64,000 bases of DNA from Acidobacteriota bacterium (GTDB lineage: Bacteria; Acidobacteriota; Thermoanaerobaculia; Multivoradales; UBA5704), in assembly GCA_034666985.1 (NCBI GenBank), contig JAXDKS010000012.1, forward strand, positions 23,714 through 87,713, in the 5' to 3' direction. The notes beneath the pieces were generated by a model. It saw nothing but the letters and a program-made list of their open reading frames with translations, was not told where the DNA came from and did not search any database. Below are positions 1,517 through 59,230 of the stretch, in pieces. How positions within the stretch are numbered: position 1 is the first letter of the stretch; the number at the start of each line of letters is the position of its first letter. The position numbers and the translations under genes were made by a program.

Positions 1517-3223
1517 ATGGAGAGGATGCGATGGCTCCGGACCTCCGCCGCCTGGCTTGCCGTGCTGCTCATCGCCGGCGTGCTGACGGCGAGCGCGGCC
1601 GAGACGAAGGAGAAAGACAAGAAGCCCGAGGCAGCGGCCAAGGAGAAGGCCAAGGCCAAGGAGAAGGAGGACGCCTCCATCCTCCCCGCGCCGCCCCGCG
1701 CCGAGGGCGAGGGCCCCTTCAAGCGGCTGATCCTCCGCGGCGTGACGCTGATCGACGGCACCGGCGCCCCGCCCGTGGGACCGGTCGACATCGTCATCGA
1801 GAAGAACCGCATCGTCGACGTCGCGGTGGTGGGGAGCCCGGGCGTGGAGGTCGACCCCAAGCACCGGCCCAAGGCCGAGGACGGCGACAAGGTGCTCGAC
1901 CTCCAGGGCCTCTACGTGCTGCCCGGCTTCATCGACATGCACGGCCACATCGGCGGCAAGGAGCAGGGCACGCCCGCCGAATACGTCTTCAAGCTGTGGC
2001 TGGGCCACGGCATCACCACCGTCCGCGACCCCGGCAGCGGCAACGGCGCCGACTGGACCCTGGATCAGAAAGCCAAGAGCGCACGCAACGAGATCACGGC
2101 GCCGCGCATCAAGGCCTACGTGTTCTTCGGCCAGGGCCGGGAGGCGCCGTTCACCACGCCCGAGGAGGGGCGCAAGTGGGTGGACGAGATGGCGGCCAAG
2201 GGCGCCGACGGCGTGAAGTTCTTCGGCTACCGGCCGGACATCATGCAGGCCGCCATCGACGAGATCAAGAAGAAGGGGCTGCGCAGCGCCTGCCATCACG
2301 CCCAGATGGACGTGGCCCGGGTCAACGTCCTCACCTCGGCGCGCTGGGGGCTCACCACCATGGAGCACTGGTACGGGCTCCCCGAGGCCCTGTTCGCCGA
2401 CCGCACCCTCCAGGATTACCCGCGCGACTACAACTACGCCAACGAGGCCGACCGTTTCGGCCAGGCCGGCCGCCTCTGGCAGCAGGCGGCGCCCCCCTAC
2501 TCGCAGCGCTGGAACGAGGTGATGAACGAGCTCATCGGCCTCGACTTCACGATCGATCCCACCTTCACCATCTACGAGGCCAGCCGCGACCTCGAGCGCG
2601 CTCGCCGCGCCGAGTGGCACGACGAGTACACGCTCCCCTCGCTCTGGGACTTCTATGCCCCCAACCGCAAGTCCCACGGCGCCTACTGGTACTACTGGAC
2701 GACCGAGAACGAGGTGGACTGGAAGAACAACTACCGCCTGTGGATGACCTTCGTCAACGAATACAAGAACCGCGGCGGCCGGGTGACCGTCGGTTCGGAC
2801 AGCGGCTTCATCTACAAGCTCTACGGCTTCGACTACATCCGCGAATTCGAGCTGCTGCGCGAAGCGGGCTTCCACCCCCTGGAGGTGATCCGCGCCGCCA
2901 CCCTCAAGGGCGCCGAGGCCCTGGGGATGGACAAGGAGATCGGCACCGTCGAGCCCGGCAAGCTCGCGGACCTCGTGGTGGTGGAGGAGAACCCGATCGA
3001 AAACCTTGCCGTCCTCTACGGCACCGGCGTCATCAAGGTGACGGAAAAGAACGAAGTCGTGCGCGTCGGCGGTGTCAAGTACACGATCAAGGACGGCATC
3101 GTCTACGACGCCAAGAAACTCCTGGCGGACGTGCGGCGGATCGTCAAGGAAGCCAAGGACAAGGCGAACCGGCCGGTGCTCTACCAGCCGGGGATGGCGC
3201 CGGCCAAGGCGCCCGCGAAATAG
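1517..3223 (+). CDS. secreted amidohydrolase-family metal-dependent hydrolase
   Basis: ATG at 1517 is preceded by GAAGGGAG. The product has a signal peptide (WLAVLLIAGVLTASAA), a Lys/Glu-rich linker and an amidohydrolase fold with metal-binding signatures (FIDMHGHIG, HH...H, D near the C-terminus). Confidence 0.75.
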   Translation: MERMRWLRTSAAWLAVLLIAGVLTASAAETKEKDKKPEAAAKEKAKAKEKEDASILPAPPRAEGEGPFKRLILRGVTLIDGTGAPPVGPVDIVIEKNRIVDVAVVGSPGVEVDPKHRPKAEDGDKVLDLQGLYVLPGFIDMHGHIGGKEQGTPAEYVFKLWLGHGITTVRDPGSGNGADWTLDQKAKSARNEITAPRIKAYVFFGQGREAPFTTPEEGRKWVDEMAAKGADGVKFFGYRPDIMQAAIDEIKKKGLRSACHHAQMDVARVNVLTSARWGLTTMEHWYGLPEALFADRTLQDYPRDYNYANEADRFGQAGRLWQQAAPPYSQRWNEVMNELIGLDFTIDPTFTIYEASRDLERARRAEWHDEYTLPSLWDFYAPNRKSHGAYWYYWTTENEVDWKNNYRLWMTFVNEYKNRGGRVTVGSDSGFIYKLYGFDYIREFELLREAGFHPLEVIRAATLKGAEALGMDKEIGTVEPGKLADLVVVEENPIENLAVLYGTGVIKVTEKNEVVRVGGVKYTIKDGIVYDAKKLLADVRRIVKEAKDKANRPVLYQPGMAPAKAPAK

Positions 3224-3233
3224 GAGACCCGCA

Positions 3234-3641
3234 ATGCCCAGGACTCGCACCGGACACACGGTTGGCGACTGGTTGGAGCTGGCCGATCTGGTCACTCCGG
3301 AGACCATCGCGGGCTCGCCGCTCCTCGAGCGGACGCACGGCGAGCTCCAGGGGTTCGTGGAGGAGATCCGGAAGCTGCTGGTCCAGCGGGACTTCTACGA
3401 GGCCCGCAAGCAGGAGACGACCCAGCGCATCCAGGAGATCCTGCCGGAAGGCCGTCGCACGGCCACTTTCCTGCGGCGGGCCTTGAAGCAGCATTTCGGT
3501 CCTGACAACGAGAAACTGGCCGCCTTCGGCATCCAGCCCTTCCGTGGGCAGAAACGCTCGCGCAAGGACGGATCCGCGTCGTCGCCCGAAACGCAGGCCC
3601 AGAGCGGCGGAGATCCTCGCTCCGGCGGGGACACGGAGTAA
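3234..3641 (+). CDS. hypothetical protein (135 aa)
   Basis: Internal ATG with AGGAGA SD 6 nt upstream. The start overlaps the stop region of the upstream gene (coupling). No recognisable domain. Confidence 0.45.
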   Translation: MPRTRTGHTVGDWLELADLVTPETIAGSPLLERTHGELQGFVEEIRKLLVQRDFYEARKQETTQRIQEILPEGRRTATFLRRALKQHFGPDNEKLAAFGIQPFRGQKRSRKDGSASSPETQAQSGGDPRSGGDTE

Positions 3642-3699
3642 AGCCTGCGCTTTCGCCGCAGATCCCGGGCCGACTGTTCCTTCCTGCGACTCTGAGACA

Positions 3700-4060
3700 G
3701 CGGCGGGAGAGATGCCTCATATCTCCAGATATGGCGCATATCCAGAGGGAAAATCATTTTCCCTTTGGCTATGGCGTATATCCGGAGGGAAAACCACTTT
3801 CCCTCCAGATATGAGCCATATCTGGAGACAACGCCTCATATGAAAAGGGAAAATCGTTTTCCCTTCAGATATGGCCTGTATCCGCGGGGAAAACGATTTT
3901 CCCTCGGGATATGGCCCATATCTGTGGATATGCGGCGTTGGAGAAAGGGAAAATGATTTTCCCTGCGGATATGAGGTGTCTTGGCGGATATGGGCTGCGT
4001 TTCCGGGCGATATCCCGTCTCTCGGGATGAGAACCCACGTTCCGGGATGACGCCTTATCG
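3700..4060. repeat. AT-rich intergenic island with ordered array of two alternating palindromes (GATATG-N3-CATATC; GGGAAAAT-N-ATTTTCCC), unit ~40/60 bp
   Basis: Perfect 15-bp palindromes GATATGgcgCATATC (3728-3742), GATATGagcCATATC (3808-3822) and GATATGgccCATATC (3908-3922). Degenerate copies lie near 3768 and 3868. Perfect 17-bp palindromes gggaaaatNattttccc sit at 3747, 3847, 3886 and 3947, with a variant at 3787. Local GC is ~48% against ~70% for the flanks. The region lies between convergent 3' ends. Confidence 0.85.
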
Positions 4061-4362
4061 GGCGGGATTTCTCTCGAATCCTCGAAGATGAGCCGTCTTT
4101 CCGGAACACGCGCCGACTTTCATGGCGCTCGCGTGTATCACCGAATCCTCTCGGTGAGGGAAGAATCTGCGGCGAAGGCGGTAGAGACGTCCCTGGTCCT
4201 GAACGATACCGGTTCGGCCACCACGGGGACCGCGGGACGTCTCCGCGGCGGCGATACCGGTTCCGATCACCCCACCGGTTGGCGGGCTCGCATCATCCCC
4301 TCGGCGACGTCCAGCGATGATGGATCTCGGGCCGCATCGGCCGCCTCAGAGACTGGAGCGGC

Positions 4363-5229
4363 TCAAGGAGCCGCCTGATGCCGCAAAGCATGGACGTAGT
4401 TGATGGGCGCGTGATCGGCAAGGTCGCGAACGGCGGCGGTGCCTCGTCTCCAGGAATTGTGCAGGAGATATTCCTCGCGTGCCTTCCAACCATCCTCATG
4501 AATGAAACCCTCGGTGGCCCCTGTCTTGATCTCCCCCAACCGGTCGATGTATACGGGGTTCGCCTCGTTCACGTGCACATAGCCCAGGTGGACGAAGGGC
4601 GGAGGCAGGTGGGTGACGATATCGCAGCAATCCACATATCGCGAGACGTCAAATCCCGACAGGGTCTCGACGAAGTCGGAATCTCCAACTCTCGGGGCTC
4701 CGAAGATGACGAGCTTCGCAGGGTTTCTCAAACTCGCCGCGAGAATGCTCAGAGCCGCGCCCAGGCTGTGGCCGGTCAACAGCAGCCGTCCTGGATGCGC
4801 CTGGAGCCAGCGGTCCAGATCCGCCCAGATGAGATCCAAATCGGTCTTGAATCCTTCGTGAACCTTGCCTCCTTTGGGCCAGGGGCGCGCGAAGGCCTCC
4901 AGGTCATGCGCCATGTCGGTGAAATCTTCCTGCTCCGTCCCCCGAAACGCAACCACGGCGGTTGCTGAGTGGGGATTCCATGCAGCCAAGGCTTGTGACC
5001 CGTCCCTGTTGAAATAGGCGACTTCGTCAAATCCGACAGATTGCAGAGCACTGCGAGTCTCGCGCTCCTCCTCTGGGAAGCTTTCACATCGCTTGTATGC
5101 TAGCAAAGAACATTCCGCACACAGCAGATCGTCCGGAAGATTCTCCGTGCGAGGAAAGAAACCGGTTGTCAGGTGTGGACGAAAGAGCGCGTCGCGGGTA
5201 GCGTCATAGAGAATTGTGCGCGTGCTCAT
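4363..5229 (-). CDS. class 3 (fungal-type) lipase / alpha-beta hydrolase
   Basis: GHSLGAA nucleophile elbow. ATG with AAGGAG SD. GC is markedly lower than the genome, consistent with horizontal acquisition. Confidence 0.8.
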   Translation of the reverse strand: MSTRTILYDATRDALFRPHLTTGFFPRTENLPDDLLCAECSLLAYKRCESFPEEERETRSALQSVGFDEVAYFNRDGSQALAAWNPHSATAVVAFRGTEQEDFTDMAHDLEAFARPWPKGGKVHEGFKTDLDLIWADLDRWLQAHPGRLLLTGHSLGAALSILAASLRNPAKLVIFGAPRVGDSDFVETLSGFDVSRYVDCCDIVTHLPPPFVHLGYVHVNEANPVYIDRLGEIKTGATEGFIHEDGWKAREEYLLHNSWRRGTAAVRDLADHAPINYVHALRHQAAP

Positions 5230-5282
5230 AGCAGCTCCTTTCTTTTCGGATCAGTTTGCCCAAGCAAACTACAAGCGGGGGT

Positions 5283-5411
5283 TCAGCTGACCTGTTTCGA
5301 TTCGCTGTCGATGTAGATCTTCTCCTTATAGATGAGCCAGATCCCGCCGACCACCATGATCAGGCCGGCGAAGGAGCTCAGGTAGTAGAGTGGCAGGGCG
5401 TTGGTATCCAT
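5283..5411 (-). CDS. possible small membrane protein (42 aa) upstream of lipase
   Basis: MDTNALPLYYLSSFAGLIMVVGGIWLIYKEK... gives a single hydrophobic helix, same strand as the lipase. Weak RBS. Confidence 0.3.
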   Translation of the reverse strand: MDTNALPLYYLSSFAGLIMVVGGIWLIYKEKIYIDSESKQVS

Positions 5412-5571
5412 CTCGGTCCCCTTCTGGTAGAGATCGCTCTCTGTGCGAGGCGTCTCTGGAGGGGGTGTTCGCGTCCGGGAGCGGGTTTCTGACAGGGGTG
5501 AGTGAAGTGAAGGAACGCCGGCCGATGGAGCCACATCAGCCGGCGTTGAGGAGAGGGTTGCTCAGCGAGCT

Positions 5572-7752
5572 CTAGGGATCGACGTAGACCGGGCTCTGTA
5601 TCGATTTCTCAGACGTAATGCCCTTGGTGTCTGTGACCAGCAGAGTGAAATCCACACTCGCCGTGCAACCGGCGAGCGTTGTCCGTCCTTCGATGGGGCC
5701 GAAGCCCAGCTTCTTCATAGGCGCGGGACTAGACGTCTCTGCTGCATGCCGCGCATCGCTGAGAAGGACTTGGAACTGAGTGGTCAGGTCCAGCCTTTCC
5801 TTGATCGGCGAGTCTGTGCCGCACTCGATGACGAGGATGGCGCTTGAGATCGTCGTATGGGCTGCCAGTCCCAGCCACTCGGAATCGATGGATGCGGCAA
5901 GGCTGTAGGGCTTTGGATCGTCCGTGTCATCGCCTGACAGCTCCTCCAGGGAGAGGGCGAGAGATGCAAGCTGACTCGCTGAGAAGCCGGGAGCGATGGT
6001 GCAGGGTGGACACGGAGTTTCCGGCGGCTGGGGCAGGGACAAGCTGGGAGCGTTCATGTCTGGCCGCGTTTCTATCGGGCACCTGGTCGTGCCGGAGACC
6101 GGGAGCCCGGTCACGTAGACCTGGGTTTTCGGGTCGCAGGAGGGCTTGGGAACGATCGGGATGACGGCGACGGGGGAAGACCGTCGGGGACGGATCCGCG
6201 AAAGGTCGGCCGCCGGGCATTCCTGAAGTTGGCAGTTGATGGATTCCACGGCAGGGCAGCGCCCTTCCGCCGTCCCACAGAGTCTGAGGACGGTCCGGCA
6301 GAGCGACAGCCGCTTCAGGTGGGGCGGCCCGATCAGCCAGGAGAGGGGCTTCCAGACATAGTAAGTTGCCTTGTCGGGAAGAGCTTCCGCCGCATGAGCC
6401 ATCCGCTTCATGACCTGAGCTGGCGCCAAGTCCGGCCGCAGGTGCCAGACCACGGCGGCGGTGGAAGAGGCGACGACGGCGGCAACCGAGCTTCCCGTGT
6501 AGATCTGGGTGGGCTCCACGCCTCCGGCCCCGTCTGACGTCCTGGCCACTGCGTGATCGGCGTAGGCGACGCGCCATGGCATGCCGTCGGGGCGGGCATT
6601 GGGCAGCGGCAGGCCTTGCCAGTCGACTCCCCCCACGGCATAAGCAACCTTCTTGCTGAAAAGGCTGGAAAGCCAGGAGCGCGACTCCCAGCCCGCCGGC
6701 AAGAAGGGCTCTTGGTGCTCATGTGCCCCTGACCGGTTGCCGGCGGCAGTGATCACCAGGACACCGAGGTCATGGGCATAGTCCAGGGCGTCGTAGACCG
6801 CCTTGGCCGAGGCTTCGAGCTCCTCCCTCTTTTTCGCGTCGGGGTCTTGGTATTCGCCGTCCCAACCGATGGAGAGGTTCAGGATGAGCTTCGCTTCGGG
6901 CTGGGAATTCTGCCAGTGCTCGATCTCCGCCAGGATGGCGATCGCGAGGTCGCCGATCCGCCCCTGGTGGCCACCGGTGTCACTTCCGGGATCGTCCGGT
7001 GACGCTGAATGGTAATCATCGTGACGCAGCGCGAGCCGGGTCGCGATGTGAATGGGACAGCCCTGAGGCGAGGTGTCATGGCCGCAGACGATCTCGTTGG
7101 CCAGGTGCGCCATCCCGTAGCCATGCCAGGAGCTCGGAGCCGGGTCCTTGGCGGGCGGCCCTTCGCCGGTGGGATGCGTATCGACGAAGACGAGGCGCAC
7201 CGTCGGCTTTTGTGCAGGACCGAGCCGAACTCTTCCGACCTGATCGAGGAAATGCTCGGCGAGCGGCTCCCAGATCTGATCCCCGAGGGGGCCCAGATCG
7301 GTGGGAGCGCTGGGAGTCAGAGCCATCTGGTCAGGCTCGGCCTTCGAGAGCCCGGCCGGCATTCGAAACTCCTGCCCTTGACCTTCATCCGTGTAGACAC
7401 AGAACCGGTCCAAGCCATGCTTGCGGAACAGGGCGTCTCTCTTCGCCTGCCTCTCTCTGTCGATCAGGGTCCGCTTCGGGGGGGCGCCGTACTGATCGCA
7501 GGCTCTCTTGGCGCCGTCCTCGGCATGAGCGACCGCAAGCTCGAACAGGGATTCCGTTCTCCAGCCGGGCACTGCGGGGCAGGAAGAACCCTTCTTGAGC
7601 ACCCCGATCCAGCGGCCTGGAGTGGGGACAGGTCCGGTCGGCTGTTCAGAGGGCTCTTTGACCTTTGGCTTATAGGAGGCGTCCGCGGCAGCTCCTGCGG
7701 CCGTCCAACTCATCGCCAATCCCAAAAGAACGCAAAGAATCCTGGATCGCAT
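5572..7752 (-). CDS. secreted subtilisin-like serine peptidase (S8 family) with Cys-rich C-terminal extension
   Basis: Catalytic D (VFVDTHPTG), H (HGYGMAH), N (AAGN) and S (GSSVAAVVAS) are present. Signal peptide MRSRILCVLLGLAMSWTAAGAAADA. ATG at 7752 with AAGGAGGA SD. Confidence 0.8.
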   Translation of the reverse strand: MRSRILCVLLGLAMSWTAAGAAADASYKPKVKEPSEQPTGPVPTPGRWIGVLKKGSSCPAVPGWRTESLFELAVAHAEDGAKRACDQYGAPPKRTLIDRERQAKRDALFRKHGLDRFCVYTDEGQGQEFRMPAGLSKAEPDQMALTPSAPTDLGPLGDQIWEPLAEHFLDQVGRVRLGPAQKPTVRLVFVDTHPTGEGPPAKDPAPSSWHGYGMAHLANEIVCGHDTSPQGCPIHIATRLALRHDDYHSASPDDPGSDTGGHQGRIGDLAIAILAEIEHWQNSQPEAKLILNLSIGWDGEYQDPDAKKREELEASAKAVYDALDYAHDLGVLVITAAGNRSGAHEHQEPFLPAGWESRSWLSSLFSKKVAYAVGGVDWQGLPLPNARPDGMPWRVAYADHAVARTSDGAGGVEPTQIYTGSSVAAVVASSTAAVVWHLRPDLAPAQVMKRMAHAAEALPDKATYYVWKPLSWLIGPPHLKRLSLCRTVLRLCGTAEGRCPAVESINCQLQECPAADLSRIRPRRSSPVAVIPIVPKPSCDPKTQVYVTGLPVSGTTRCPIETRPDMNAPSLSLPQPPETPCPPCTIAPGFSASQLASLALSLEELSGDDTDDPKPYSLAASIDSEWLGLAAHTTISSAILVIECGTDSPIKERLDLTTQFQVLLSDARHAAETSSPAPMKKLGFGPIEGRTTLAGCTASVDFTLLVTDTKGITSEKSIQSPVYVDP

Positions 7753-7885
7753 GGTGTTCCTCCTTGATGCCGCAGGCAGCGGTGCCGCTCTTGACCGGCA
7801 CGGTCCTGGAGGCCCCTCGTGCCGCGGCTTTCTCCTTAGGCTTTCGCGGCCGGCTGTTCGTTTCTGACGAACGGCAAGCAAGGAA

Positions 7886-10672
7886 TCAAGGAATAAGGAG
7901 GCGGAAGCTCGCCCAGGCAGCCTTGGGGGACGGATCTTTCTTGCGGCAGGCCAGTTGCGCCCGCCGCAACTGGTGTGGGAGATCCTCCCCTGGCTGCCAG
8001 TGGCGGTACAGCTCGTCCATCAACTCGCTGGCGGAAGAATCGGGGACCAACTGCCTCGCGGCGACGACTTCCTTGGAGCCGGCCAGCAGGAAGGCGTTGG
8101 CGAGGCCGACTCCCTCGCCGGGGGCTTCCTCTGAGGTGCGGCCGGCGTCGCAGGCGGAGAGGACGATCGAAGCGGGCGTGTGGGGGGACAGGGCCAGGAC
8201 GTCGCTCAGCGTCAGGCGGGATTGGTCCGCCAGCGGCAACTCGCTGCTCCAGCCGGCGAAGCCGCCGAAGGTCCCATGGCCGGCATAATGAAAGAAGCTC
8301 GCTCTGGCCAGCGCATCGCTAACCTGCTTGGACTTGGCATCGTTGCCCTTTAAAGACGTCAGTGTCCATGAGCCCGGCCAACGCTTGATGGCGGCGGCCA
8401 CCGTCTCCGCTTCAATGTCGGCCGTACGGAGGTCTCTCGTGGGGTTGGAGACCACGAGGGCTTCGTTCTGGCCGCTCCGGGGTATGGAGGCGAGGCGCAT
8501 CGACAGGTCGAGGCTGTAGGCCACCAGATGGGTCGCGAGCAGTGGCTGACCGTGGGTGAAAGGCAGGGCATGGAAGTCCACAGACCTCAGAGGGCCGTAA
8601 GGTAGGACCTTCACGCTCGTGGCGCTCGCGATGGCTGATTGGAAGGCCAGAGACGGCGTGAGAAGGATCCGCGCGAGTTGATCCAGAGGAGCCGCCGAGA
8701 AGTTCTCGGGAAGCTCGATCCTCTCGACCACGATTCCCCGCTCCGTGGCCGCGAAGGCCGCCCACTGCTTTCCGGGCAAGGGGTGATAGGCCAGGATGAC
8801 CTCGCCGGGCGCTGGGGGGGCGAGCGTTCCCTCGCCGTTGCCGCCGAGAGCATCCAGAGTGCCCAGAGCGCCGTCGAGAGCTTCCTGAGCGCCCTTGAGC
8901 CTCTCGGCCTCCTCTTTCAGAGCGCGCTCTTTCTCGCTGACGGCCAACTGCCAGCGCTTCGCGGCGTCGCTTTCGACGGTCTGGCGAATGGCGTTGTACC
9001 TCGACAAAGATTCAAACCAGGTCTTCTGTTCTGTTTCATCTAAATGGCTCAGGCGGTCGCGGACCGCGAGCTGGCGCAGCAACCGCGAGCGAGACCTGCG
9101 AGCCAGGTCGAAGGCACTTTGCCACTGATCCCCTTCGAGCAGCAGCTTGAGATAAAGGCGGGTCGCTGCCTCCTGATAGGCGAAGAAGGTGTCGCGCCCC
9201 TGATGAACCGGAATGTGTCGGCTCTGCTCTGCGATCTGGCGCTCCGCCTTGGCGAGGGCGTCGATGGCCTCCTGCCGCTGTTTGAGGGCGATGTGAGCGT
9301 TGGCCCTGCCGAGCAGCGCCTGGAGGAGGCCCGCGGGCGACGCGGCGCGCTCAGATCTCTTCTCGAGCTTCTCGTAGAGGCCGCGAGCGAGCTCCGGATG
9401 GCCTTCGTGAAGCGCCGCCCGCGCCGCGAGATCGTCCTGCCAGAGCAGCTCGAGCAGATTCGAATGCTCGGCCAGAGCCTGGGCTCGAGCGAGCTGCCGG
9501 CGCGCCTCGGACCATTGGCCCTGTTGCTGATAAGCCAATGCCAGATTTTGGTGAGCGTTGAGCCGTTGTTCTGACGAGCATCCATTCTGCTCGAATTCGG
9601 CCAAGGCCTGCTGGACGACCGGGACCGGGTTTTCGGCGGTATTGCCTGCCTCGTGCTCCATGAGCTGAAACCAGCCCACATTGGTCCAAAGGGTCCCCAA
9701 CGCGCAACTGGATTTGAGGTCAGGGTCGGCCTGCAGTTTGGCGTACAGCGTGGACGCGTCTTGCAAGCGGCCAAGCTGCTGATATACGAGAGCCAGCATC
9801 TGGCCGGCCTCCCTTTTCAGCTTGGGATTTCCAAACCGCTGCGCGAGATCGATTGTTTCCTGGAGCCGCTTCAGAGCTACGGCGTAGTTGCTGGTCTTCT
9901 GAGCCAGTACGCCCTGGTAGAAGGTCACATTGAACCTGTCGTCGGCCGGCGCTTTCGGAGGGGGCCGGAGCGTCTGGAGAATCTGTCCCGCATCGGCGAA
10001 GCTCCCCTGTTCAATGTAGATTCCTGCGAGCCAGGTTGCTTGCTTGGCTACGCCGCTCCAGCGGTTCTCGCTGCGATTCGCGGAGATTCCTTGATTCAGG
10101 TACAGCTCCTCCTTTTCTCTGTCTCCGGCGAGGTGGGCCAGAATGGCGAGCCGCGACAAGGTGAAGCTCTGCTCTTTGCGTGGAGCCGATCTCTGGATTT
10201 GCTCCAACAGGCTCAGGGCCTCGACTCTCTTGCCGGAGCTGATCAGCTTTTGGACCTCGTCCCACCAGGACGGCTGCTCAGGCTCGGCCAGACGAAGGAA
10301 CCAGCTCGGGCCGGGGCTGCCGTCCGGCGAGAAGGCCTCGACCGTCAGCCGGTCGGCCGGCTTGGGAATGGAGAGCAGGTAGCGTCTGCCGCCGCTCACC
10401 TTCTCTTCTTTCTTTGGCTCCAGGAGCCCCCCGCCGGCGCGGAGCTCCACTTTCCGATCCGGGGGAGTGGTCCTCACCCAGAGGGTGAGCTGGCGCTCGG
10501 GAACGAGGGAGCAGACCTGGTCCGGCAGATAGAAGGCCCAGCATCCGGCATACTCGACTTCCAGGACCGGTGGGGCAGGAGCCGGTTTGCCACAAGCCAC
10601 GAGGAGCCCGGCGAGCGCCCCCAGGCAGAGAGACGCGCGAAGGAGAAGGCCCTGGGCTGGGCTCAGGGTCAT
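7886..10672 (-). CDS. lipoprotein with TPR repeats and C-terminal CHAT (caspase-like His/Cys) domain
   Basis: Lipobox LVAC. Multiple TPR-like helical repeats. The C-terminus has HYAGHG...LSACDAG, a His-Cys dyad typical of CHAT. Start ATGA overlaps the anti-sigma stop. Confidence 0.75.
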   Translation of the reverse strand: MTLSPAQGLLLRASLCLGALAGLLVACGKPAPAPPVLEVEYAGCWAFYLPDQVCSLVPERQLTLWVRTTPPDRKVELRAGGGLLEPKKEEKVSGGRRYLLSIPKPADRLTVEAFSPDGSPGPSWFLRLAEPEQPSWWDEVQKLISSGKRVEALSLLEQIQRSAPRKEQSFTLSRLAILAHLAGDREKEELYLNQGISANRSENRWSGVAKQATWLAGIYIEQGSFADAGQILQTLRPPPKAPADDRFNVTFYQGVLAQKTSNYAVALKRLQETIDLAQRFGNPKLKREAGQMLALVYQQLGRLQDASTLYAKLQADPDLKSSCALGTLWTNVGWFQLMEHEAGNTAENPVPVVQQALAEFEQNGCSSEQRLNAHQNLALAYQQQGQWSEARRQLARAQALAEHSNLLELLWQDDLAARAALHEGHPELARGLYEKLEKRSERAASPAGLLQALLGRANAHIALKQRQEAIDALAKAERQIAEQSRHIPVHQGRDTFFAYQEAATRLYLKLLLEGDQWQSAFDLARRSRSRLLRQLAVRDRLSHLDETEQKTWFESLSRYNAIRQTVESDAAKRWQLAVSEKERALKEEAERLKGAQEALDGALGTLDALGGNGEGTLAPPAPGEVILAYHPLPGKQWAAFAATERGIVVERIELPENFSAAPLDQLARILLTPSLAFQSAIASATSVKVLPYGPLRSVDFHALPFTHGQPLLATHLVAYSLDLSMRLASIPRSGQNEALVVSNPTRDLRTADIEAETVAAAIKRWPGSWTLTSLKGNDAKSKQVSDALARASFFHYAGHGTFGGFAGWSSELPLADQSRLTLSDVLALSPHTPASIVLSACDAGRTSEEAPGEGVGLANAFLLAGSKEVVAARQLVPDSSASELMDELYRHWQPGEDLPHQLRRAQLACRKKDPSPKAAWASFRLLIP

Positions 10673-11562
10673 GGGGCGGCCGGCTGACCCTCGGCGCGAA
10701 AGTCCACGCAGGCCACCTGCCAGGGGCCAGGAGATGGTTTCTCCTGCTTGAGAGCATCGCAGAGGGTCTGCCAGGATTCGTTTTGGGGGCGGTTGGCCCG
10801 CAGCCGCGTCTGGACCTCCTTGGCCTCTGGAAGGCTGTTCCGGGCGACGACGGTCCAGAAGATCCAGTCTCCCGGCGGAACCTTGAGGTCGTCCTCACCC
10901 ATCGTGGCGGTGAGGCGGACACTGCCGGTTTTTCCGGGTTCAAACTTGTCTTCCAGTCCCAAAGGCCTCAAATCCTCCCAGCCGGCGCTGGGGCTGAGGA
11001 AAGCTCTCGCCTTGACTGCTCCGGGGTGCTCGAGGGGTTGCTTCGGATTGATCTCCAGGATGAAAGGCGAGCCAGAGGCAAAGATCCGCTTCTCGTTCGG
11101 CGTCGCGGCCTCGCTCCCTCGGTTCGTCTTGAAGCCGCCGTCCAGACTGGCCTCATAGCTGGGTAGCGGCAGCGCCGGCCCCCGCACCAGAAAGAACACC
11201 CCCGCCGCCACCACCGCCGCGGCTCCAATCCAGACCTCCATCCTGCGGGTTACCCGTCGAAAGGGCAGCACGCGGGGCCTCTCCTCCCGAGGCTCGGGGG
11301 CTGGCGCCTCGCTCGTCCGCTCCGCGTTGATCGCGTTCACCACCCGCGCCTGGAAGTCGGCGCCGAGAGGACGGAACGCCTCATAGGCTTCCCGGGCTTC
11401 GGGAGAGGATTCGGCGAGGGCCTTCAGCTCTGTTTCTTCCTCAGCGGTCAAGGTTCCGGCCGCCAGGCGATCCCAGCGCTCGTCGAGGCGGGCCTTCTCG
11501 GTCTCCTCTTCGCGCCGCGCCAGATCCGCCAGCTCTTTCAAAAGTAGATCATCCATATTCAT
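10669..11562 (-). CDS. anti-sigma factor (single-pass membrane protein)
   Basis: The gene sits immediately downstream of the ECF sigma with a 6-bp gap. It has a charged N-terminal domain, one TM helix (WIGAAAVVAAGVFFLV) and a periplasmic domain. Confidence 0.55.
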   Translation of the reverse strand: MNMDDLLLKELADLARREEETEKARLDERWDRLAAGTLTAEEETELKALAESSPEAREAYEAFRPLGADFQARVVNAINAERTSEAPAPEPREERPRVLPFRRVTRRMEVWIGAAAVVAAGVFFLVRGPALPLPSYEASLDGGFKTNRGSEAATPNEKRIFASGSPFILEINPKQPLEHPGAVKARAFLSPSAGWEDLRPLGLEDKFEPGKTGSVRLTATMGEDDLKVPPGDWIFWTVVARNSLPEAKEVQTRLRANRPQNESWQTLCDALKQEKPSPGPWQVACVDFRAEGQPAAP

Positions 11563-11568
11563 CCCCCT

Positions 11569-12207
11569 CTATGTCTTTCGCACCGGCGCCCGGTTTCCTG
11601 ACATCTCGGCCAGCAGCTTCTGGGCCACACGGCGGAGACGGCTGCGCCAGGCATAGACCGCATCGGCGGAGAGGCCGCTCGCCGCTTGGACCTCCGTCTG
11701 CGACAGTTCCTGGACGAAGAGGAGCTGGAACAGACGCCGGCCCAGGGGGCTCAGCTCTTCGCGCAGACGGTCGAGAAGGAGGGAGAGGTGCTCGCGGCTG
11801 GCGGTGACTTCCTCCGGATCGCTGTCCGGGGCCGCCTTGTCGAGCTCGTCTTCGGCAAAGGCGGAGTCCTCCTTCCAGGGATTCCGCCGGCCGCTACGGA
11901 GGAAGGAGAGCACTTGGCGCTCCGCCACCAAGCCCACGAAGTTTTCGAGCGAGAGGCCCCGCTCGGATTGCCAGGAGCGCAGGATGTGGCCGTCCCGGGT
12001 GAAGAGCGCCAGGAAGACTTCCTGGCTCTGATCCTCCACCTCCTGGCGCAGGTCGCGCCCGCTGGCGAGGAGGGAGCGGCGGGCGAGGAGCGTCCGCGCT
12101 ACGCGGGCCTGGATCACGGGCGTCAGCACGGCCACCAGCCGGCTCAGGGCGGTCTGATCTCCGTCCAGGGCTCGCCATACCAGACCGGCGGTGTCCTCAG
12201 CATTCAT
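11569..12207 (-). CDS. ECF (sigma-70 family, group IV) RNA polymerase sigma factor
   Basis: Region 2 and region 4 helices (...LSQTEVQAASGLSADAVYAWRSRLRRVAQKL). Size 212 aa. Position upstream of the anti-sigma gene. Confidence 0.75.
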   Translation of the reverse strand: MNAEDTAGLVWRALDGDQTALSRLVAVLTPVIQARVARTLLARRSLLASGRDLRQEVEDQSQEVFLALFTRDGHILRSWQSERGLSLENFVGLVAERQVLSFLRSGRRNPWKEDSAFAEDELDKAAPDSDPEEVTASREHLSLLLDRLREELSPLGRRLFQLLFVQELSQTEVQAASGLSADAVYAWRSRLRRVAQKLLAEMSGNRAPVRKT

Positions 12208-58874: not shown

Positions 58875-59215
58875 TATGAAGAGGCTGCCACCTTGGTGGC
58901 AGCGGCCGCCACCTCGATGGGAGTGACTGCCATCTTGGTGGCAGTGGCTGCGACCGCGGTGGGAGTGACCGCCATCTTGGTGGCAGCGGCTGCTACCTTG
59001 ATGGGAGAGGCTGCGACCTTGGTGGGAATGACCGCCACCTTGGTGGCAGCGGCTGCCATCCCGGTGGGAGTGATCGCCATCTTGGTGGGAGTGGCTGCCA
59101 CCTTGATGGGAGCGGCTGCCACCTTGGTGGGAGCGGCTGCGACCTTGGTGGGAGTGATCGCCACCTTGGTGGCAGCGGCTGCCATCCCGGTGGGAGTGAT
59201 CGATACCTTGGTGGG
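58875..59215. repeat. 16 tandem copies of 21-bp unit gccaccttggtgggagcggct (heptad in any frame: ATLVGAA / PTKVAAA)
   Basis: Regular 21-bp periodicity with point variants. Lies immediately downstream of the M50 protease stop and ends ~70 bp before the RHH gene start. Confidence 0.85.
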
Positions 59216-59230
59216 AGTGGCTGCAACCCC

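Follow-up and report, generated by a model that had tools for sequence, protein, structure and literature searches.

The F-plasmid site sopC consists of 12 direct repeats, 43 bp long, and in each of them SopB binds a 16-bp inverted repeat (PMC3177203). Here we describe an array of short, phased palindromes in a 64,000-nucleotide stretch of DNA from an Acidobacteriota bacterium (contig JAXDKS010000012.1, positions 23,714-87,713; hereafter the window), which can be compared with sopC in its layout. The array lies at window positions 3709-4144, where two types of palindrome alternate, the A box (GGGAAAA-N3-TTTTCCC) and the B box (GATATG-N3-CATATC), and it follows a gene for a 135-residue protein. 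The array and this upstream gene are a conserved two-part module in uncultured Thermoanaerobaculia (Acidobacteriota), and no description of such a gene-array module was found in the literature on Thermoanaerobaculia palindromes, Acidobacteria nucleoid proteins or tandem and inverted-repeat arrays. The reading that we regard, tentatively, as the likeliest is that the array is a phased duplex-DNA binding platform for the adjacent coiled-coil protein, laid out like sopB-sopC. An earlier note, made from the letters of the window alone, had singled out the array and overlooked the protein encoded immediately upstream, which is most probably the partner of the array.

A species-representative genome collection was scanned for two A boxes 20-46 bp apart. 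Arrays of the same family were found in metagenome-assembled genomes (MAGs) of Thermoanaerobaculia and Thermoanaerobaculaceae (loci L002, L003 and L005). L002 and L003 share synteny with the window, their kinase, amidohydrolase and small gene being 81-91% identical. L005, a second array in the MAG of L002, has other surroundings, a Uma2-like gene on one side and an amidase gene on the other; it lacks the small gene and carries the same A and B boxes as the gene-linked L002 array. The arrays L013, L015 and L048 are likewise without the gene. A relaxed scan of metagenome contigs yielded 40 further loci, which fall into two classes. Class I arrays have 40/60/80-bp spacing and belong to the same family as the window array. 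Class II arrays can have as many as 15 A boxes, spaced at 42 bp but also at 21, 63 and 84 bp, and these alternate with another short palindrome whose sequence depends on the lineage.

All open reading frames (ORFs) around 47 array loci were clustered by local similarity, and the only recurrent neighbour of the arrays was the family of the 135-residue protein, with its 3' end always toward the array. A homologue lies directly upstream of the array at ~25 loci from ~18 lineages. Across the gene-linked loci, 4-181 nt separate the stop codon from the array start, and the arrays of the module hold 5-15 regularly spaced palindromes. In a DNA-blind test, homologues were picked by protein similarity only (45-60% identical) and their contigs were then fetched; an array was present in the uncalled downstream gap in 7 of 7 cases (P0033, P0019, P0021, P0032, P0040, P0056 and P0066). 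Three of these arrays have A boxes beyond the reach of the original pattern, and the boxes that it missed read GGGAGCG-N3-CGCTCCC (L050, L056), GGGACGG-N3-CCRTCCC (L053) and GGGCACG-N3-CGTGCCC (L059). Three distant family members (L049, L061 and L062) have no array and instead a GC-rich terminator-like hairpin with a T-rich stretch, the T run being clean in L049 and L061. Gene neighbourhoods vary by lineage and include the chromosomal housekeeping genes EF-P, RecO and SelB; the genes upstream of the module encode an amidohydrolase, a Rieske oxygenase, an extracellular contractile injection system (eCIS) core protein and others, with no partner NTPase (ParA, ParM or TubZ) among them. Since the neighbours differ between lineages, the module stands alone on the chromosome.

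A separate observation concerns L062, where a long inverted repeat lies downstream of the distant family member, at 3560-3730, with arms GGTAGAGACGCCCAGCCG.../...CGGCTGGGCGTCTCTAC around an inner palindrome.

Profile searches of the 135-residue protein returned no match in Pfam, NCBIfam, PHROGs, PADLOC or PDB. Its AlphaFold2 model (pLDDT 79.5) is all-helical, with one helix of ~60 residues and a disordered tail. The conserved motifs are MPRTRxGxTVGDW (N terminus), ARKQE and GRR (long helix) and FGIQPFRGRKR (ahead of the tail); the helix segment with ARKQE and GRR has an isoelectric point of 10. The family comprises 1,023 representatives at 50% identity (E <= 1e-3), and its named members all come from Thermoanaerobaculia or Acidobacteriota MAGs and are labelled hypothetical. 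A few members carry seemingly spurious, coiled-coil-driven names, 'DNA-binding protein H-NS' twice (JGI). The Histone_HNS models were unmatched; among 10 members, one distant member gave a sub-threshold N-domain score of 17 bits against a cut-off of 24.5.

In all arrays the building block is a 20-21-bp module, a short palindrome whose arms measure ~7 bp and whose centre measures 3 bp, and A and B types alternate (S S' S S'). Across 18 independent arrays, 130 of the 132 distances between adjacent A boxes fall on multiples of 20-21 bp (42 bp in 76 cases, 41 bp in 15, 40 bp in 11, 21 bp in 6, 60-63 bp in 18 and 80-84 bp in 4), and this geometry holds across lineages with differing box sequences. 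In the A box, the outer GGG...CCC is invariant (by selection) and the left flank is purine-rich. Arm position 4 is paired in 99% of boxes, and positions 4-6 switch on both sides between lineages, from A-T to C-G or G-C, giving the variants GGGAAA/TTTCCC, GGGAGC/GCTCCC and GGGCAC/GTGCCC. The 3-bp centre is fixed in length and free in sequence except for a Y-N-R tendency. The B box, the more degenerate of the two, varies with the lineage and reads GATATG-N3-CATATC in the window, TACGACG-N3-CGTCGTA in L055 and L059, TCCCGCG-N3-CGCGGGA in L017 and TTCGRCG-N3-CGYCGAA in L040. AT-richness is confined to the lineage of the window and other arrays are GC-rich. The GC-rich arrays of sister lineages (GGGCACG.., GGGAGCG..) weaken the earlier suggestion of a landing pad for a xenogeneic silencer.

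Conservation was then compared between the window and six orthologous loci. Identity over the array is 0.75-0.90, next to 0.77-0.90 for the whole gene and 0.64-0.84 for its third codon positions, which are thus less conserved than the gene overall. The spacer between stop codon and array (0.61-0.79) and the distal flank (0.43-0.76) both lie below the array. These values show that the array is under purifying selection and is conserved as strongly as coding sequence. Orthologues differ in length by whole 20/40-bp modules: the first A module of the other orthologues is missing in the window and in L002, and the 40-bp unit with A box 4 of the window is an extra copy relative to the orthologous arrays. 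The array is syntenic with its upstream genes in related genomes, and synteny with related MAGs stops at ~4141-4145, distal to the array. Beyond this point lies a low-GC block (4145-5570, GC 0.53-0.63) with a class-3 lipase gene (4363-5229, minus strand), which has no counterpart in L002, L003 or L009. Since synteny ends just distal to the array and the lipase block has no counterpart, the array borders a variable region. The earlier note had asked whether a low-GC block from 3.65 to 5.57 kb, lipase included, is an insertion; the lipase part is indeed non-syntenic in those three loci, but the left edge at ~4141-4145 excludes the array.

Within the window, the GC content is 0.475 at 3701-3900 and 0.495 at 3801-4000, against 0.66-0.68 on both flanks, and the island is flanked by convergent 3' ends, the stop of the plus-strand gene at 3641 and that of the minus-strand lipase gene at 4363. 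GC skew across the window was uninformative. The A-box pattern GGGAAAANNNNTTTCCC, allowing at most one mismatch, matches five times in 64 kb, with a chance expectation of 0.01, and all matches are within the array; they start at 3747, 3787, 3847, 3887 and 3947, in steps of 40/60/40/60 bp. These five A boxes are interleaved with six B boxes over 3709-3992. The B box is perfect at 3728, 3808 and 3908 and has one or two mismatches at 3709, 3768 and 3868 (0.44 matches expected). The AT-rich island, its place between convergent genes and the alternating order at ~40/60-bp spacing were therefore all described correctly before, as was the argument that the array is not a CRISPR, the apparent spacers being repeated B boxes. 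Two counts needed revision. Three degenerate B boxes accompany the three perfect ones where two had been reported, and of the five A boxes, all earlier described as 8-1-8 palindromes, only those at 3747 and 3947 are perfect in this form; these two are mutual reverse complements. The A boxes at 3847 and 3887 are 7-3-7 palindromes, each the reverse complement of the other. The features are as follows, the palindromic elements being given without strand.

3234-3641, plus strand: small-protein gene, 135 aa, called as a gene on the source contig.
3642-3708, plus strand: spacer between stop codon and array, with a short hairpin (CTGCG..CGCAG) that lacks a T run; neither a terminator nor a promoter consensus is present.
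3709-3723 and 3728-3742: two B boxes by pattern match, the first with one mismatch and the second perfect (GATATG-GCG-CATATC).
3747-3763: A box 1, GGGAAAATCATTTTCCC, 8-1-8.
3768-3782: B box, GCTATGGCGTATATC, two mismatches.
3787-3803: A box 2, GGGAAAACCACTTTCCC, imperfect.
3808-3843: perfect B box (3808-3822) and half-element GAGACAACGCCTCATATG, which jointly form a 60-bp step.
3847-3863: A box 3, GGGAAAATCGTTTTCCC.
3868-3882: B box, GATATGGCCTGTATC, two mismatches.
3887-3903: A box 4, GGGAAAACGATTTTCCC, reverse complement of A box 3.
3908-3940: perfect B box (3908-3922) and half-element GGATATGCGGCGTTG, which holds a DnaA-box-like 9-mer.
3947-3963: A box 5, GGGAAAATGATTTTCCC, 8-1-8, reverse complement of A box 1.
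3964-4144: degenerate tail with ~20-bp periodicity and GGATATG / GGGATGA modules, kept in the closest orthologues.

On the array, Tandem Repeats Finder detects repeat periods of 40 and 100. The region is also a 102-nt quasi-inverted repeat, because all parts of the array are palindromes. No gene is called across the array on the source contig, a JGI metagenome contig of 173 kb (sample 3300044812). Two ORFs cross it (3717-4109, minus strand; 3765-3956, plus strand), and a coding repeat was considered; the 20/40-nt module indels break the frame, and since indels between orthologues are not multiples of three, these ORFs are taken as non-coding.

In the tail, a terminator scan flagged a small hairpin, CGCCTTATCGGGCG, at 4049-4064, which is conserved in L002. 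The letters GACGCCTTATCGGGC at ~4049-4063 resemble the Escherichia coli consensus of repetitive extragenic palindromes (REPs; ..ACGCCTTATCCGGCC..), probably by coincidence.

We then propose a model for the module. The protein encoded at 3234-3641 would be a small, probably dimeric coiled coil with basic patches, and it would bind the dyad-symmetric A boxes as double-stranded DNA. With boxes every two helical turns, the bound proteins would be aligned on one face of the helix and could thus build one large nucleoprotein complex. Arrays without a gene elsewhere in the genome would be bound in trans; such action is plausible, since a single MAG holds the gene-linked L002 and the gene-less L005 with the same A and B boxes. 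Candidate roles would be chromosome organisation or segregation, autoregulation and insulation, and the arrangement resembles a plasmid centromere with its binder gene (sopB, then sopC) or a nucleation site of a nucleoid protein. Our comparisons show that gene and array are linked, that the geometry is kept, that purifying selection acts, that the arms change on both sides and that an RNA-strand signature is lacking; we infer the identity of the binder, duplex DNA as its ligand and the role of the complex. Among the three options offered in the earlier note, the iterated binding-site array fares best, although there is no evidence for the two dimeric proteins that it invoked. A binding-site array is favoured by the conserved arms, the constant length of the centre, the strict 20-21-bp spacing and the lack of strand-specific wobble; a symmetric-dimer operator fits conserved arms, a fixed-length centre of free sequence and a spacing of exactly two turns better than an RNA hairpin does. 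It is possible, though we hold it with less assurance than the binding platform itself, that the module represents a new chromosomal system specific to Thermoanaerobaculia, in which a coiled-coil protein outside the ParB and ribbon-helix-helix families would polymerise on arrays of two alternating palindromes phased every two turns, with co-evolving box-specificity and with gene-less arrays as trans sites.

Several observations weigh against a DNA-binding platform. There are two palindrome types but one conserved gene, and the B box is left without an assigned reader. The two-sided arm change suits pairing in a hairpin as well as a co-evolving dimer, and the homogeneity of arms within an array could result from concerted evolution of tandem copies. 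The first A box begins only 4-34 nt past the stop codon in L016, L031, L038, L046 and L060. In L016, L036, L028 and L050 the antisense strand folds 24-65 kcal/mol better, unlike in the other 18 arrays, and its G·U pairs outnumber those of the sense strand 4- to 10-fold; this advantage may be an effect of composition (G+T; C/A-rich B modules). Finally, the array is probably transcribed as a 3' untranslated region (UTR), because no terminator consensus separates it from the gene and it often starts within ~30 nt of the stop codon; a scan for consensus promoters and terminators between gene and array gave nothing above shuffle expectation.

One alternative, accordingly, is that the module works at the RNA level: the array would be co-transcribed as a multi-hairpin 3' UTR or repeat RNA, whose hairpins bind the protein (autoregulation, sponge or ribonucleoprotein) or stabilise the mRNA. 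The missing terminator and promoter and the short distance to the stop codon speak for it. So does the canonical intrinsic terminator that distant homologues hold at the array position, which the array would thus replace; each module is able to form a 7-bp hairpin, with arms that change on both sides between lineages, and the conserved RGRKR could be an arginine-rich RNA-binding motif. To compare the strands, each array was oriented by its gene and the non-complementary positions of the arms were classified. G·T is a wobble pair in sense-strand RNA, while A·C gives a wobble pair only in antisense RNA. A transcript hairpin selected on one strand should give a clear excess of G·U on that strand, and neither strand has one: the palindrome arms hold 115 G·T and 135 A·C against 2,247 Watson-Crick pairs, and pairs 5-7 of the A boxes hold 34 and 44. 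Minimum-free-energy folding of both strands gave differences that are small and inconsistent across most arrays, with no consistent advantage of sense or antisense. The Rfam results are also against an RNA, since an E-value scan of 3000-5000 with Rfam 15 returned only sub-threshold eukaryotic microRNA precursor models (generic hairpin similarity) and none of 16 array loci matched at the gathering threshold. Moreover, the loops are variable and the stems are conserved in sequence, which is the opposite of typical protein-binding RNA hairpins; the strict 20-21-nt module length has no obvious RNA rationale; and gene-less arrays stand in other contexts, such as L005. The multi-hairpin non-coding RNA raised earlier thus finds no support from Rfam or from the G·U comparison, and we keep it, in this RNA-level form, as an unlikely but serious competitor of the DNA-binding platform.

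Another possibility is that the array is a selfish or structural palindromic repeat without a dedicated protein, either a mosaic like REPs and bacterial interspersed mosaic elements (BIMEs) or an amplified bidirectional terminator expanded by slippage, with the gene linkage due to descent or to insertion preference. The alternating orientation, the two alternating spacers and the convergent genes are as in BIMEs, modules are gained and lost between orthologues, and synteny breaks directly beside the array. The four gene-less arrays (L005, L013, L015 and L048) and the likeness of Class I A boxes to an A-tract, hairpin and T-tract terminator point in the same direction, and a second, unrelated 21-bp palindromic array in the window hints that such arrays form readily in these genomes. 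However, no A box was found outside arrays in the 64-kb window or in a scan of 17 loci totalling ~190 kb, so single copies are lacking both here and in the flanks of other loci. The earlier note had held that ubiquitous palindromes would indicate a REP-like element; A boxes occur only inside arrays, with at least one gene-less array in a related genome. In addition, conservation of the array is as strong as that of coding sequence, the link to one protein family survives complete divergence of the boxes (7/7), and the gene-less array in the same genome retains the lineage-specific B box. We therefore consider a repeat without its own protein improbable, more so than the RNA module.

We also weighed whether the array could be an origin of replication, an iteron or a partition site belonging to an integrated plasmid or prophage, or else a cluster of DnaA boxes. 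The phased tandem repeats resemble iterons (~22 bp) and sopC (43 bp; PMC3177203), and, as the earlier note had remarked, a DnaA-like 9-mer, ATATCCACA, does occur on the reverse strand at ~3922-3931; it matches the DnaA box at 8 of 9 positions. The orthologous arrays read CTGCGGATATG there (TGCGG in place of TGTGG), and the 9-mer, being unconserved, was rejected as a DnaA box. None of the loci examined has an adjacent gene for Rep, ParA, ParB or an integrase, the neighbours are chromosomal housekeeping genes (EF-P, RecO and SelB), and viral contigs held no match to the DNA pattern or to the protein profile. The array is, moreover, syntenic with its upstream genes in related genomes. The earlier proposal of an iteron or partition site of an integrated element does not survive this comparison, and an origin or partition site of this kind is largely refuted and very improbable.

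Nothing else in the window resembles the array by sequence, as had been stated; a sequence-blind scan did find an unrelated palindromic array, at 58883-59228, with 16.5 copies of a 21-nt unit, GGCTGCCACCTTGGTGGGAGT, which is an 8-2-8 quasi-palindrome with 0% indels. On one side it is bordered by the start of a minus-strand ribbon-helix-helix/antitoxin-like gene (~58803) and on the other by the 3' end of an M50-peptidase-like gene, after which come EF-P and an EF-G-like gene. The same M50/EF-P/EF-G trio directly adjoins the family gene and its array in L055. The second array is crossed by ORFs on both strands (the minus-strand one with a 7-aa repeat, PTKVAAA), and the variation between units is not 3-periodic. 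No remnant of the 135-aa family gene was found beside it, and its unit was not found in the other loci or in viral contigs.

Tandem arrays with the core GGGAAA-N5-TTTCCC form a further group (L007 and L008 from Tannerella MAGs, L014, L019, L020, L023, L029, L034, L035, L039 and L043). They have periods of 21, 22 or 42 and contig GC of 36-57%, include Bacteroidota, and stand mostly just upstream of genes; the one in L020, for instance, precedes a TonB-dependent-receptor-like gene. Near arrays of this type, the 135-aa protein has no homologue.

Two other observations were made near the module. In L002, ~100 nt past the orthologous array, a 17-nt perfect inverted repeat (CGCCAGGGATTGAAATC ... GATTTCAATCCCTGGCG) surrounds ~90 nt at 5043-5163 and looks like a miniature inverted-repeat element. 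On the far side of the lipase gene, the window has a minus-strand cluster (5572-12207) of an S8 subtilase-like gene (5572-7881), a TPR-CHAT protein (7886-10672), a putative anti-sigma protein (10669-11562) and an ECF-type sigma factor (11569-12207), which resembles a signalling or protease cassette.

Together, these comparisons provide a testable pair, a large protein family without annotation and a cis element. Chromosome organisation, segregation and nucleoid proteins are little known in Acidobacteriota, and Thermoanaerobaculia are almost entirely uncultured. Under any reading, the gene-array link is a useful annotation rule for Thermoanaerobaculia genomes, and the boxes can be recognised directly in the sequence of each genome. 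If the proposed platform is correct, the module would be a new centromere-like or chromosome-organising element, and if the ligand is the transcript, a new module of repeat RNA and protein. Binding of the arrays by the protein would make the module a centromere- or nucleation-site-like system whose components have no relation to those of ParB, ribbon-helix-helix or H-NS systems, and the AAA, AGC, CAC and ACG arms would then be natural specificity variants for recognition studies or orthogonal DNA-protein pairs.

Among known systems, sopB-sopC shares with the module an array directly downstream of the (here presumed) binder gene, a period of ~42-43 bp, a palindrome with ~7-bp arms, boxes only in arrays and a variable number of units. 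The module differs in that its protein is not a ParB or helix-turn-helix protein and has no homology to known families, no ParA ATPase gene is adjacent, and it is chromosomal and conserved across a bacterial class; furthermore, a lineage-specific second palindrome gives 20-21-bp modules, and there are extra gene-less arrays. In ParR-parC (R1/pSK41), ParG-parH and omega-heptads, as in our proposal, a small dimeric protein coats phased repeats into one large nucleoprotein structure, with both orientations used. Those proteins, however, are ribbon-helix-helix proteins, their repeats of 7-20 bp usually lie upstream as operators, and motors of the ParM or ParA type act together with them; nothing of this kind is seen here.

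REPs and BIMEs of enterobacteria and pseudomonads are likewise mosaics, in which imperfect palindromes alternate in orientation and two spacer lengths also alternate; they are intergenic, at gene 3' ends and often between convergent genes, with units gained and lost. They are dispersed in hundreds of single or clustered copies and mobilised by RAYT transposases, whereas the arrays described here are tied to one protein family. CRISPRs also have partly palindromic repeats at regular intervals, but the intervening segments here are conserved palindromes and not unique spacers, no cas genes or domains were found among the neighbours, and the period is 40-42 bp.

Type III toxin-antitoxin systems (ToxIN, CptIN and TenpIN) also pair the gene of a small protein with tandem repeats, of ~36-45 nt, that are physically linked to it. 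Their repeats precede the toxin gene, with a terminator in between, and the toxin is a beta-rich endoribonuclease (ToxN/AbiQ-type), whereas the array of the module follows its gene, the protein is all-helical and without PADLOC match, and an RNA-strand signature is lacking. H-NS, Lsr2 and MvaT resemble the protein in combining a coiled coil with a short conserved basic R-G-R motif, and the island in the window is AT-rich. There is, however, no significant H-NS match, and targeting by AT-richness does not apply to the GC-rich sister arrays (GGGAGCG-N3-CGCTCCC, GGGCACG-N3-CGTGCCC and TACGACG-N3-CGTCGTA); the sites of the array are instead discrete palindromes in register.

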